From assembly GCF_001677475.2 (NCBI RefSeq), contig NZ_CP015229.1: 64,000 bases of DNA; one strand, written 5' to 3'. The translations under genes and the position numbers were made by a program. The DNA comes from Escherichia coli (GTDB lineage: Bacteria; Pseudomonadota; Gammaproteobacteria; Enterobacterales; Enterobacteriaceae). Shown in pieces: positions 7,091-17,051 of this stretch. Under the pieces are notes generated by a model that worked only from the letters and a program-made list of their open reading frames with translations, had not been told where the DNA came from and searched no databases. Each line of letters starts with the position of its first letter. The first letter of the stretch is position 1.

Positions 7091-8341
7091 ATGAATAAAC
7101 AATCCTGGCTGCTTAACCTCAGCCTGTTGAAAACGCACCCGGCGTTTCGCGCAGTATTCCTCGCTCGTTTTATCTCAATTGTGTCTCTGGGTTTGCTCGG
7201 CGTCGCGGTACCGGTGCAGATCCAGATGATGACGCATTCTACCTGGCAGGTGGGGCTTTCGGTGACGCTGACCGGCGGCGCGATGTTTGTTGGCCTGATG
7301 GTCGGCGGTGTGCTGGCGGATCGCTATGAGCGCAAAAAAGTGATTTTACTGGCGCGCGGCACCTGTGGCATTGGCTTCATTGGACTGTGCCTGAATGCGC
7401 TGCTGCCGGAGCCGTCATTGCTGGCAATCTATTCACTCGGTTTATGGGATGGTTTTTTCGCATCGCTTGGCGTTACGGCGCTACTGGCGGCGACACCTGC
7501 ACTGGTAGGGCGTGAAAACCTAATGCAGGCCGGGGCGATCACCATGTTGACCGTGCGTCTGGGATCGGTGATTTCGCCCATGATTGGCGGTTTACTGCTG
7601 GCGACTGGCGGCATAGCCTGGAACTACGGGCTGGCGGCGGCGGGCACGTTTATTACCTTGCTACCGTTGTTAAGCCTTCCGGCGTTGCCACCGCCACCGC
7701 AGCCGCGTGAGCATCCGTTGAAATCATTACTGGCAGGATTTCGTTTTCTGCTCGCCAGCCCGCTGGTAGGAGGGATTGCGCTGCTGGGTGGTTTATTGAC
7801 GATGGCGAGCGCGGTGCGGGTACTGTATCCGGCGCTGGCTGACAACTGGCAGATGTCGGCGGCACAGATTGGTTTTCTCTATGCGGCGATCCCGCTCGGT
7901 GCGGCTATTGGCGCGTTAACCAGCGGGAAGCTGGCACATAGCGCGCGACCAGGGTTATTGATGTTGCTCTCCACGCTGGGATCGTTCCTCGCCATTGGTC
8001 TGTTTGGCCTGATGCCGATGTGGATTTTAGGCGTGGTTTGTCTGGCGCTGTTCGGCTGGCTGAGCGCGGTTAGTTCGTTGCTGCAATATACAATGCTGCA
8101 AACGCAAACCCCGGAAGCGATGTTAGGGCGGATTAACGGTTTGTGGACGGCGCAAAATGTGACGGGAGATGCCATAGGCGCGGCGCTGCTGGGCGGTTTG
8201 GGAGCGATGATGACACCGGTTGCTTCCGCAAGCGCGAGCGGTTTTGGTTTGTTGATTATCGGCGTGTTGTTGTTGCTGGTGCTGGTGGAGTTGCGACGTT
8301 TTCGCCAGACGCCGCCGCAGGTGACAGCGTCCGACAGTTAG
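7091..8341 (+). CDS. entS: Enterobactin exporter, MFS family
   Basis: 416-aa ORF with about 12 hydrophobic segments; divergent from fepD behind a Fur box. Confidence 0.93.
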
Positions 8342-8353
8342 CTAAAGGTGCAT

Positions 8354-8396
8354 TTTCCCCTCACCCTAACCCTCTCCCCAAAGGGGCGAGGGGACT
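8354..8396. repeat. GC-rich palindromic intergenic element, copy 1
   Basis: cccctcaccctaaccctctcccc aaa ggggcgaggggac; the same 23-nt core recurs at 16753-16775. Sits between convergent entS and fepB, so a likely bidirectional terminator hairpin. Confidence 0.6.
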
Positions 8397-8421
8397 GTTA
8401 GTGCTCTAATTTTATGTTTTA

Positions 8422-9387
8422 TCAATCTTTTTTAAACAGTGAATTAAGTCTGTCCAGCACTTGCATGGCGCTGTAGTAATCCAGGCGGAACGTCTCGGTT
8501 CCCAGCGCATAAACCTGCTTGTTTTGTACTGCGGGCAGGTGTGCGAGCAGCGGATTAGCATAAATAGCATCGGCGTCTTTCTGATCACCGGCGAACAGGA
8601 ATAGTGACTCGCCATTTAACCCTGCAGCCAGATTTTCCCCACCAAGCTGAATGATGTCATGGCGTTTGCCCTGGCTTTGGCTGGCGTTTAAGCCTGCGGG
8701 CAACTTCGCCAGCGTAAAGCCGAGTTGTTCCAGCATCTGCCCTTGTGCTGATTCCGGCGTCCAGAGATTGGCACTGTGTGCAGCGGCAGTATAGACAATG
8801 GCAGTGATCGGCTGCGGCGGTAATTTGATTTGCTCTTTCGCCGCTGCCAGTTGCTTATCAAACTGTGCAATCCGCTTTGCCGCTTGTTTCTCATGCCCGG
8901 TAATTTCGCCAAGCTGCGTTAACAGCGACTGCCAGCTTTTGTCGTCGTAATTGATGATTAATGTCGGGGCGATGGTAGAGAGCTGATCATACAGCGCCAG
9001 CGCCGAATCACCGCCGGTTGCGCTAATTAAAATCAGATCCGGCATTTGCGCGGCAACGGCTTCTGCACTCGGTTCGCCGATATAGAGCCGTTGCAGTTTG
9101 CGTTCTGTCGCCACCTTGCTCCACTGGCGTAAAAAGCCCTGGTCATCCGCGACGCGGTTATTTGGCGTGGTCGCGCCGCTGGCGATCACCGGAGCATCAA
9201 TCGCCAGCAGTGAGCCGGTCAAGGTGACGCTGGTGGAAACAATACGCTGCGGCTGGCTTTCCAGGGTATGAGTGCCACGGCTGTCAGTAATCTGACGCGG
9301 CCAGTCGGCAGCCTGAACTACGGCTATTCCTGAAAGCAAAAGTCCTGTTAATAGAAGGGCGTTGCGGTAGAGCGAGGCGAGTCTCAC
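8422..9387 (-). CDS. fepB: Ferric enterobactin periplasmic binding protein
   Basis: 321-codon ORF beginning at GTG (MRLASLYRN...), signal-peptide-like N-terminus; Fur-regulated divergent partner of entC. Confidence 0.9.
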
Positions 9388-9527
9388 AAATCAGCTTCCT
9401 GTTATTAATGAAGTTAATGCTTCTCATTTTCATTGTAACCACAACCAGATGCAACCCCGAGTTGCAGATTGCGTTACCTCAAGAGTTGACATAGTGCGCG
9501 TTTGCTTTTAGGTTAGCGACCGAAAAT

Positions 9528-9546
9528 ATAAATGATAATCATTATT
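9528..9546. promoter_or_regulatory. Fur box in the divergent fepB / entC promoter region
   Basis: Core tgataatcattat (9533-9545) matches the Fur consensus exactly, with partial matches on both flanks. Confidence 0.7.
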
Positions 9547-9575
9547 AAAGCCTTTATCATTTTGTGGAGGATGAT

Positions 9576-14584: not shown

Positions 14585-16690
14585 ATGAACAAATCAGGGA
14601 AATACCTCGTCTGGACAGTGCTCTCTGTAATGGGAGCATTTGCTCTGGGATACATTGCTTTAAATCGTGGGGAACAGATCAACGCGCTGTGGATTGTGGT
14701 GGCGTCGGTCTGTATCTATCTGATCGCTTATCGTTTTTATGGTCTGTATATCGCCAAAAATGTGCTGGCGGTTGACCCGACGCGTATGACGCCAGCGGTG
14801 CGCCATAACGACGGGCTGGATTATGTGCCGACGGACAAGAAAGTGCTGTTCGGTCACCATTTTGCGGCCATTGCCGGAGCTGGTCCGTTGGTGGGGCCGG
14901 TGCTGGCAGCGCAAATGGGCTACCTGCCGGGGATGATCTGGCTGCTTGCTGGGGTGGTTCTCGCCGGTGCGGTACAGGATTTCATGGTGCTGTTTGTTTC
15001 CACGCGCCGTGACGGTCGCTCGCTGGGTGAGCTGGTCAAAGAAGAGATGGGGCCAACCGCCGGGGTGATTGCGCTGGTTGCCTGCTTTATGATCATGGTC
15101 ATCATCCTTGCCGTGCTGGCGATGATCGTGGTGAAAGCCCTGACCCATAGCCCGTGGGGAACGTATACCGTTGCGTTCACCATTCCGCTGGCGCTGTTCA
15201 TGGGGATCTACCTGCGCTATCTGCGTCCAGGGCGTATTGGCGAAGTGTCGGTCATTGGCCTGGTGTTCCTGATTTTCGCCATTATCTCTGGCGGCTGGGT
15301 GGCAGAAAGTCCGACCTGGGCACCGTACTTTGACTTTACCGGCGTGCAGCTGACCTGGATGCTGGTGGGTTACGGCTTCGTGGCGGCGGTGCTGCCGGTG
15401 TGGTTGCTGCTGGCCCCGCGTGACTACCTCTCAACCTTCCTGAAAATCGGGACTATTGTCGGTCTGGCGGTAGGCATTCTGATTATGCGCCCGACGCTGA
15501 CCATGCCTGCTCTGACCAAATTTGTTGATGGCACTGGCCCGGTATGGACCGGTAACCTGTTCCCGTTCCTGTTTATTACTATCGCCTGTGGCGCGGTGTC
15601 TGGCTTCCATGCGCTGATCTCTTCTGGCACCACGCCGAAGATGCTGGCGAACGAAGGGCAGGCGTGCTTTATCGGCTACGGTGGGATGTTAATGGAATCC
15701 TTCGTGGCGATTATGGCGCTGGTTTCCGCCTGTATCATCGATCCGGGCGTTTACTTCGCAATGAACAGCCCAATGGCGGTGCTGGCTCCGGCAGGGACGG
15801 CGGATGTGGTTGCTTCTGCCGCGCAGGTGGTGAGTAGCTGGGGCTTTGCGATTACCCCGGATACGCTAAACCAGATTGCCAGCGAAGTGGGTGAACAGTC
15901 GATCATTTCCCGTGCGGGCGGTGCGCCGACCCTGGCGGTGGGGATGGCCTACATTCTGCACGGTGCGCTGGGCGGCATGATGGATGTGGCGTTCTGGTAT
16001 CACTTCGCCATTCTGTTTGAAGCACTGTTTATTCTGACGGCGGTGGATGCAGGTACGCGTGCTGCGCGCTTTATGTTGCAGGATCTGCTGGGCGTGGTGT
16101 CTCCGGGCCTGAAACGGACAGATTCTCTGCCTGCTAACCTGCTGGCAACGGCGCTGTGTGTGCTGGCGTGGGGCTACTTCCTGCATCAGGGCGTGGTCGA
16201 TCCGCTGGGCGGTATTAACACCCTGTGGCCGCTGTTTGGTATTGCCAACCAGATGCTGGCAGGGATGGCGCTGATGCTCTGTGCCGTAGTGCTGTTCAAG
16301 ATGAAACGTCAACGTTACGCCTGGGTGGCGCTGGTGCCAACGGCCTGGCTGCTGATTTGTACCCTGACCGCAGGCTGGCAGAAAGCGTTCAGCCCGGATG
16401 CGAAAGTGGGCTTCCTGGCCATTGCTAATAAGTTCCAGGCAATGATCGACAGCGGTAATATTCCGTCGCAGTATACTGAGTCACAACTGGCGCAACTGGT
16501 GTTCAACAACCGTCTGGATGCCGGGTTGACCATCTTCTTTATGGTGGTTGTGGTGGTTCTGGCGCTGTTCTCGATTAAGACGGCACTGGCGGCATTGAAA
16601 GAGCCGAAGCCAACGGCGAAAGAAACGCCGTATGAGCCAATGCCGGAAAATGTCGAGGAGATCGTGGCGCAGGCGAAAGGCGCGCACTAA
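14585..16690 (+). CDS. cstA: Carbon starvation protein A (peptide/pyruvate transporter family)
   Basis: 701-aa polytopic membrane ORF; characteristic N-terminus MNKSGKYLVWT. Confidence 0.95.
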   Translation: MNKSGKYLVWTVLSVMGAFALGYIALNRGEQINALWIVVASVCIYLIAYRFYGLYIAKNVLAVDPTRMTPAVRHNDGLDYVPTDKKVLFGHHFAAIAGAGPLVGPVLAAQMGYLPGMIWLLAGVVLAGAVQDFMVLFVSTRRDGRSLGELVKEEMGPTAGVIALVACFMIMVIILAVLAMIVVKALTHSPWGTYTVAFTIPLALFMGIYLRYLRPGRIGEVSVIGLVFLIFAIISGGWVAESPTWAPYFDFTGVQLTWMLVGYGFVAAVLPVWLLLAPRDYLSTFLKIGTIVGLAVGILIMRPTLTMPALTKFVDGTGPVWTGNLFPFLFITIACGAVSGFHALISSGTTPKMLANEGQACFIGYGGMLMESFVAIMALVSACIIDPGVYFAMNSPMAVLAPAGTADVVASAAQVVSSWGFAITPDTLNQIASEVGEQSIISRAGGAPTLAVGMAYILHGALGGMMDVAFWYHFAILFEALFILTAVDAGTRAARFMLQDLLGVVSPGLKRTDSLPANLLATALCVLAWGYFLHQGVVDPLGGINTLWPLFGIANQMLAGMALMLCAVVLFKMKRQRYAWVALVPTAWLLICTLTAGWQKAFSPDAKVGFLAIANKFQAMIDSGNIPSQYTESQLAQLVFNNRLDAGLTIFFMVVVVVLALFSIKTALAALKEPKPTAKETPYEPMPENVEEIVAQAKGAH

Positions 16691-16706
16691 AGTCAGAGTG
16701 AGGGGG

Positions 16707-16736
16707 GAATGTTGGCGAATGTTGGCGAAAGTTGGC
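16707..16736. repeat. Tandem 10-mer repeat, three copies
   Basis: gaatgttggc gaatgttggc gaaagttggc, lying between the cstA stop and the second copy of the GC-rich palindrome. Confidence 0.6.
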
Positions 16737-16748
16737 ATGGTGCCGAGG

Positions 16749-16793
16749 GTTCCCCCTCACCCTAACCCTCTCCCCGGTGGGGTGAGGGGACTG
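16749..16793. repeat. GC-rich palindromic intergenic element, copy 2
   Basis: ccccctcaccctaaccctctcccc ggt ggggtgaggggac; same core and orientation as 8354-8396. Confidence 0.6.
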
Positions 16794-16853
16794 ACCGAGC
16801 GCGTTGATAGCTATTAATGCACTCTCTCAGCAATCTGATTACCGGAGGTATTG

Positions 16854-17051
16854 ATGTTTGATTCACTGGCAAAAGCCGGAAAATATTTAGGTCAGGCGGC
16901 GAAGCTGATGATTGGTATGCCTGATTACGACAACTATGTCGAACATATGCGGGTTAACCATCCCGATCAAACGCCGATGACCTACGAAGAGTTTTTCCGT
17001 GAGCGGCAGGACGCGCGCTACGGTGGAAAAGGTGGCGCGCGCTGCTGCTAA
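16854..17051 (+). CDS. ybdD: Small DUF466-family protein paired with cstA
   Basis: 65 aa from the ATG at 16854, with GGAGG upstream; conserved cstA-ybdD pairing. Confidence 0.85.

Follow-up and report, generated by a model that had tools for sequence, protein, structure and literature searches.

The 64,000-nucleotide stretch of Escherichia coli DNA analyzed here (the window) contains, in this order, entS, fepB (- strand), entCEBAH, cstA, ybdD, and hcxA (- strand), as judged from its open reading frames and the annotation of K-12 MG1655. Within this region the GC-rich 23-mer CCCCTCACCCTAACCCTCTCCCC occurs twice as an exact match on the + strand, at 8357-8379 (site 1) and 16753-16775 (site 2). 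It is followed by AAA and GGGGCGAGGGG at site 1 (8380-8393), and by GGT and GGGGTGAGGGG at site 2 (16776-16789). Both copies are intergenic, the first lying between the stop codons of entS (8341) and fepB (8422) and the second between the stop codon of cstA (16690) and the start codon of ybdD (16854). A preliminary description of the window had singled out this pair as a hairpin element present twice in the same orientation, with a complementary GGGG(C/T)GAGGGG arm, and had placed the copies after entS, convergent with fepB, and after cstA. Both observations are borne out by the exact matches and by the gene context, the second copy lying ahead of ybdD. No further match to the 23-mer with up to three mismatches is found in the 64 kb, and none was seen in 100 dinucleotide-preserving shuffles.

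Anatomy and family of the two copies

Each copy consists of three blocks of 9-11 nt, read on the + strand as two C blocks and one G arm, and on the - strand as one C block and two G blocks (Table 1). In pairwise alignment the two sites are identical from ~3 nt before the core to the ACTG past the arm. The limits of the unit were set by alignment of six E. coli copies, which have about 52 nt in common (TTCCCCTCACCCTAACCCTCTCCCC-loop-GGGGNGAGGGGACTGTTnGTGC), with a weaker likeness continuing ~20 nt further into the tail. The start coordinates of the preliminary description hold, but its arm ends (8395/8396 and 16793) run 2-4 nt past the arm and the conserved unit is longer than the stretch it had marked. 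The observed length agrees with the ~56 bp published for BoxC, for which 32 copies are given in E. coli (Bachellier, as cited in PMC2267715).

Table 1. Positions of genes, BoxC parts, and mapped RNA 3' ends (window numbering, except 3' ends, which are in MG1655 numbering)
Feature	Position	Strand	Remarks
entS	7091..8341	+	stop codon 13 nt before BoxC copy 1
Lineage-specific insert with copy 1	8342..8436	.	~90 bp relative to K-12; right boundary fuzzy
BoxC copy 1, full conserved unit	8354..8405	-	consensus match and 6-copy alignment; C-rich strand is +, the entS mRNA sense
Copy 1 distal C block CCCCTCACCC	8357..8366	+	followed by TAA loop 8367-8369 (type A)
Copy 1 middle C block CCCTCTCCCC	8370..8379	+	followed by AAA loop 8380-8382
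Copy 1 G arm GGGGCGAGGGG	8383..8393	+	pairs with either C block, one mismatch each
Copy 1 conserved tail ACTGTTAGTGCT	8394..8405	+	family consensus GACTGTTnGTGC
fepB	8422..9387	-	converges with entS; 321 aa, ends ...LNSLFKKD
cstA	14585..16690	+	ORFs and K-12 MG1655 annotation
GAGTGAGGGGGG, putative remnant of inverted partner	16696..16707	+	directly past cstA stop; aligned with K-12 fepB-leader and gldA-yijF doublets
Spacer, three tandem 10-mers GAATGTTGGC / GAATGTTGGC / GAAAGTTGGC	16707..16736	+	K-12 has two
BoxC copy 2, full conserved unit	16750..16801	-	C-rich strand is +, the cstA mRNA sense
Copy 2 distal C block CCCCTCACCC	16753..16762	+	followed by TAA loop 16763-16765
Copy 2 middle C block CCCTCTCCCC	16766..16775	+	followed by GGT loop 16776-16778
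Copy 2 G arm GGGGTGAGGGG	16779..16789	+	perfect complement of distal C block
ybdD	16854..17051	+	start codon 52 nt past end of BoxC copy 2
3' end, cstA-ybdD	632098	MG1655 +	10 nt past G arm; site 2 orthologue (PMC7815308)
3' end, after lldD	3781065	MG1655 +	3 nt past arm; significant Rho termination region; intrinsic score 1.32 (PMC7815308)
3' end, antisense to rluF 3' end	4231270	MG1655 -	3 nt past arm; eroded copy (PMC7815308)
3' end, orphan (intergenic)	847200	MG1655 -	4 nt past proximal hairpin; G-rich orientation (PMC7815308)
3' end, fepB leader	624680	MG1655 -	just 5' of B copy; abundant; intrinsic score 1.39 (PMC7815308)

On the - strand both copies match exactly the consensus given for the BoxC/PIT/TMECO family by Holder et al. 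2015 (PMC4666352), 5'-CCCTCNCCC N3-6 GGGNGAGGG N3 GGGNGAGGG-3', at 8358-8392 and 16754-16788, with no match expected in shuffles. The second loop defines the subtype, TTA marking type A and CCG type B (Holder et al. 2015, PMC4666352), and both copies are of type A (GGGAGAGGG-TTA-GGGTGAGGG). The same authors treat TMECO as one with the element named BoxC in the 1990s and with the potential intrastrand triplex (PIT) element described by Hoyne and Maher (2000/2002). HPG1 and HPG2 are the names used by Kaplan et al. 2016 (PMC5100583), whose HPG1 table for K-12 includes cstA>>>ybdD (no. 19, midpoint 632058), fepB<<< >>>entC, and fabI/ycjD; the K-12 orthologue of site 2 corresponds to no. 19. The 21-mer core is identical at the K-12 fabI-ycjD and fepB-entC loci and has one mismatch at cstA-ybdD. 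In K-12 the element is reported in 23 copies, all of them between genes; 13 copies are on one strand and 10 on the opposite one, and five form inverted A+B pairs (Holder et al., PMC4666352). The K-12 cstA copy is missing from the strict list of Holder et al. because of a point change in its third block (CTCTCACCC), a block that is intact in the window.

The two copies share with BoxC, PIT, TMECO, and HPG1 the exact consensus, the TTA loop of type A, the intergenic position, the multi-copy state, and the tail, and nothing essential differs. The repeat family, which the preliminary description had left open, is settled, and both elements are assigned to BoxC (PIT, TMECO type A, HPG1), a GC-rich repeat of ~50-56 bp dispersed between the genes of E. 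coli and its relatives. In Rfam no family matched, the hits being at chance level and far below the gathering scores (for example, 19 bits for Antizyme_FSE, which has a gathering score of 40). The earlier remark that the element is not a classical REP also proves correct, as neither copy resembles the REP consensus palindrome of the kind found in the true REP adjoining the K-12 cstA BoxC. REP/BIME sequences are likewise short, GC-rich, intergenic, hairpin-forming, and highly repeated, but they are unrelated in sequence; BoxC is built from three blocks whereas REP is a single palindrome, and no RAYT association was found for BoxC in 1.8 Mb of flanking DNA. The element is already known: four names have been given to it since the first descriptions in the 1990s, and BoxC is said to go back to Bergler in 1992 and Bachellier in 1996.

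RNA folding and transcript 3' ends

In the + strand RNA of both sites the G arm pairs with the distal C block, with one A·C mismatch at site 1 and perfectly at site 2, and the 43-nt RNA cores have minimum free energies of -19.7 and -27.2 kcal/mol, respectively. With pairing to the distal block disallowed, the arm folds onto the middle block instead (about -17 kcal/mol); since the arm can pair with either C block, two alternative hairpins are available. The hairpin of the preliminary description is real, but the 61-nt stretches surpass composition-matched shuffles only modestly (z = -1.36 at site 1 and -2.85 at site 2). Much of the stability of the hairpin is owed to base composition. With the C-rich strand present in both transcripts, the entS and cstA RNAs would each fold into a GC hairpin of 10-11 bp.

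The preliminary description had offered two functions for such a hairpin, terminator or mRNA stabilizer. As a Rho-independent and possibly bidirectional terminator it would serve entS and fepB, and cstA. BoxC does resemble intrinsic terminators in having a stable GC-rich stem-loop just past a stop codon (here by 13-60 nt), a terminator role has been speculated on by Kaplan et al. (PMC5100583), and Term-seq of K-12 maps an RNA 3' end 10 nt beyond the cstA copy (PMC7815308). However, the U-tract is absent on either strand. A consensus scan returned no terminator-like site within 8200-8600 or 16600-17000 on either strand because there is no T-run behind the stems. The BoxC-linked 3' ends that carry a score reach only 1.3-1.4 with the cut-off for an intrinsic terminator at 3.0 (PMC7815308), which argues against intrinsic termination. 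Reporter assays on PIT elements by Hoyne and Maher, as far as they are summarized in PMC4666352, gave neither terminator nor promoter activity; in the same earlier work, according to that summary, neither RNA polymerase nor reverse transcriptase nor conjugation was affected, and replication was not blocked in vivo. The placement of the family also speaks against termination, as K-12 copies occur in both orientations and more often upstream than downstream of ORFs (PMC4666352, PMC5100583), including 5' leaders and positions upstream of operons. Moreover, site 2 sits between cstA and ybdD, the products of which are reported to work as one pyruvate transporter. Taken with the assays as summarized, these points make a terminator very improbable.

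The association with transporter genes in the preliminary description is coincidental, as the neighbors of BoxC in K-12 are genes of every sort, with the element in either orientation (PMC4666352, PMC5100583). Of the co-oriented K-12 loci in the table of Kaplan et al. (PMC5100583), six carry the C-rich strand in their RNA and three the G-rich one.

RNA 3' ends were taken from the curated Term-seq tables of Adams et al. 2021 (PMC7815308), in which the printed sequence runs from -50 to +10 and was checked against the coordinates. The 3'-end mapping that the preliminary description had called for gives an end at the K-12 orthologue of site 2 (632098; PMC7815308). Of three growth conditions, only one yielded this end, with a modest read count; its entry lacks the Rho and intrinsic scores given for the LB OD 0.4 set, to which it therefore does not belong. 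The abundant end at 624680 hints at an effect of the inverted BoxC doublet in that leader on the fepB leader transcript. With a few dozen hairpins in all, four 3' ends linked to BoxC are by a rough estimate only mildly above the intergenic expectation, and are taken here as suggestive. Ends that lie a few nt beyond a stable stem lacking a U-tract are as expected of exonucleolytic trimming to a protective hairpin.

REPs protect upstream mRNA from 3' exonucleases. The BoxC RNA hairpin would not end transcription in the manner of an intrinsic terminator, but would block 3'-to-5' exonucleases, or mark a processed end, a few nt downstream. By analogy with the K-12 ends, such an exonuclease block or processed end downstream of the hairpin is the most likely outcome for the copies in the window, and the mRNA-stabilizer or 3'-end-barrier effect is plausible there. 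The BoxC, triplex, and G-quadruplex literature cited here does not report RNA 3'-end mapping, a statement that extends to these papers and not to other work linking the two. Our literature search found no newer functional work on TMECO or HPGQ after 2016.

Gain, loss, and erosion of copies

In K-12-type alleles the stop codons of entS and fepB are 3 bp apart, and the first copy, in departure from published BoxC copies, occupies a locus without an element in K-12 and >99% of complete E. coli genomes. Only 38 of 5,426 such genomes have the insert; strain 2014C-3011 carries it with three differences in 161 nt. The last codons of fepB are altered as well, up to about 8444 (window 8422-8444). K-12 FepB has 318 aa and ends ...LKALF, and the C terminus of FepB in the window is rewritten together with the BoxC insert. 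The right flank of the insert resembles that of the gldA-yijF copy of another strain, suggesting that the unit may extend ~20 nt further. A match to a sigma-70 promoter (TTTAAA-16-TAAAAT, 9/12, 8436-8409 on the - strand) in the AT-rich part of the insert points towards entS and is probably due to chance.

The flanks of site 1 suggested a target-site duplication of TAAA or CTAA/TTAA, and the clean empty allele that this predicts was searched for in the 5,426 genomes. No clean empty site was found, all empty alleles in 30 sampled rows being of the K-12 type, 4 bp longer. These K-12-like alleles also end fepB with different codons, and a duplication can therefore not be claimed. A second candidate, the apparent repeat GACAGTTAG/GACTGTTAG, is the conserved tail of the element itself. 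Recombination with a divergent lineage may have brought in the entS-fepB allele. Over 24 kb (window 20000-44000) the best identity to any of the 5,426 complete E. coli genomes is 98.2%, a distance that explains the unusual allele. The window thus belongs to a lineage without near kin in this set, possibly Shigella or an outlying branch of Escherichia.

At site 2, directly after the cstA stop codon, GAGTGAGGGGGG-AATGTTGGC resembles the inner G block and spacer of inverted BoxC doublets found elsewhere, a likeness suggesting that site 2 may be a decayed doublet; GAGTGAGGGGGG is probably the remnant of the inverted partner copy. Most genomes align through the element, and in ST131 only GTTCCCCTTACTCTCAGC remains and the hairpin is lost. 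Site 2 is an old but eroding copy. Near the position equivalent to ~16816, ST131 has a different small hairpin, AGCCCTCTTAATTCAGGAGGGC. K-12 carries a classical REP just downstream of its BoxC, which the window does not have (about 16816).

Inverted A+B doublets with homologous spacers and tails are found in the K-12 fepB leader and at gldA-yijF. The former, of ~190 bp, occupies the fepB 5' leader of K-12 and is present in 2,722 of the 5,426 genomes; it is absent from the window (fepB-entC region, 9388-9575). Strain 2014C-3011 combines this doublet with the site 1 insert, which shows that they are independent of each other. The ent-fep-cstA region holds three independent BoxC presence/absence polymorphisms within 9 kb, in agreement with the finding of Holder et al. 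(PMC4666352) that BoxC loci are unusually variable, with a pattern of gain, loss, and erosion across 56 strains. A further, incomplete hairpin resembling BoxC (CCCCCTCGCTCTTTCAGGGAGAGGGT) lies at the 3' end of ycjD in K-12, ~170 bp away from the BoxC of fabI-ycjD.

The genome-wide search proposed in the preliminary description shows that the motif is not unique to the two sites. With the 161-nt site 1 query, 5,425 of 5,426 complete E. coli genomes have megablast-detectable places (median 8, up to 15); 38,646 of these 38,656 places are chromosomal and only 10 are on plasmids. Holder et al. (PMC4666352) reported 3,610 copies in 262 proteobacterial genomes, with none in Salmonella and 1 to 29 among E. 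coli strains, and no link between BoxC and transposons, phages, or plasmids. In Enterobacter asburiae the copy number is about 143.

A generic consensus matched at least 120 loci in species-representative genomes, and the matches listed come from Mitsuaria chitosanitabida, a Methylomirabilota MAG, and a Contendobacter MAG. A variant among them, CCCTC[TG]CCCGCTTGCGGGAGAGGGnnGGGGTGAGGG, often occurs in inverted pairs. Among the matches listed, the three-block motif is extremely abundant in the betaproteobacterium and present in the NC10-phylum MAG, for the most part in inverted pairs with a distance of 15-270 bp. The hairpins of these pairs face inward, the opposite of the arrangement in the E. 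coli doublets. The exact 23-mer is also found in 72 IMG/VR contigs (viral or prophage-predicted), most of which have GC-rich flanks and a GGGGAGAGGGGACGTGCC arm and few of which have the enterobacterial tail; these contigs may represent host flanks of predicted prophages. A second related hairpin often follows the IMG/VR cores by ~55 nt. The three-block core is thus far more widespread than the enterobacterial BoxC unit, be it through common descent, horizontal spread, or structural convergence.

DNA structure, mobility, and the nature of BoxC

Read on the - strand, the element runs GGGG-AGA-GGG-TTA-GGG-TGA-GGGG, and the canonical G-quadruplex motifs at 8357-8379 and 16752-16775 are the only ones in the 64-kb window. 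One possibility is that BoxC acts as non-B DNA, through an intrastrand C·G*G triplex or a switch between G-quadruplex, hairpin, and duplex, which would stall replication or recombination or regulate neighboring genes. Such a structure would explain rearranged BoxC loci, and the three polymorphic sites within 9 kb match the instability reported by Holder et al. Both copies fit the triplex consensus, and a consensus oligonucleotide forms the triplex and the G-quadruplex/hairpin in vitro by CD and NMR (PMC4666352). The conserved third block is left unexplained by a plain hairpin; its invariance suggests another constraint, be it triplex, G-quadruplex, or protein recognition. In vivo DMS footprinting, however, gave no support for a stable triplex, the double-stranded form behaved as B-DNA, and no in vivo effect on replication, transcription, or conjugation was found, at least in the results set out in PMC4666352. 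The link to variability could just as well arise because the repeat itself is mobile. On balance, a role as non-B DNA is rather unlikely.

In another reading, BoxC is a non-autonomous MITE- or REPIN-like element that an enzyme moves in trans, with an inverted doublet as its basic unit and single copies such as these two as decayed halves. The polymorphism at defined loci, the A+B doublets with homologous spacers and tails in the fepB leader and at gldA-yijF, the partner remnant adjoining site 2, the copy numbers that vary widely between strains and species (PMC4666352), and the occurrence of the core in distant bacteria, often as inverted pairs, are all consistent with it. Yet site 1 offers neither a clean empty site nor a target-site duplication, its empty alleles being K-12-like with different fepB codons, and the K-12 doublet offers a 3-bp TAA as its sole candidate for a duplication. 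Moreover, tblastn with K-12 RayT found no homologue in 1.8 Mb of BoxC-flanking DNA (best E = 1.7), and the lack of a transposon, phage, or plasmid link (Holder et al., PMC4666352) is matched by the near absence of plasmid places. We regard this kind of mobility as possible but doubtful. A bolder combination, in which BoxC is actively spreading (in trans or by recombination), its recent arrival at entS-fepB rewrote the end of FepB, and its hairpins are general 3'-end barriers like those of REPs, we consider unlikely. If it were true, the arrival of BoxC would have pushed apart convergent genes that normally have 3 bp between their stop codons.

The explanation we favor, and hold with good confidence, joins three parts: the two elements are BoxC copies, they belong to a labile, probably selfish or neutral repeat, and they produce a non-terminating RNA hairpin that likely serves as an exonuclease barrier or marks a processed end. 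As such a repeat, BoxC would be gained, lost, and eroded between strains, and would probably be selfish or neutral and not a gene-specific regulator.

As the family has long been known and the cstA-ybdD locus stands in published tables, the discovery value is small; the rare insert at site 1, together with the altered FepB C terminus, is the new detail. Both sequences should be annotated as BoxC, and not as terminators or a new repeat. RNA 3' ends at BoxC hairpins are already on record in the Term-seq tables, which suggests a REP-like effect at the RNA level, and the ent-fep-cstA region is a natural test bed for the spread of BoxC and its effect on neighboring genes.
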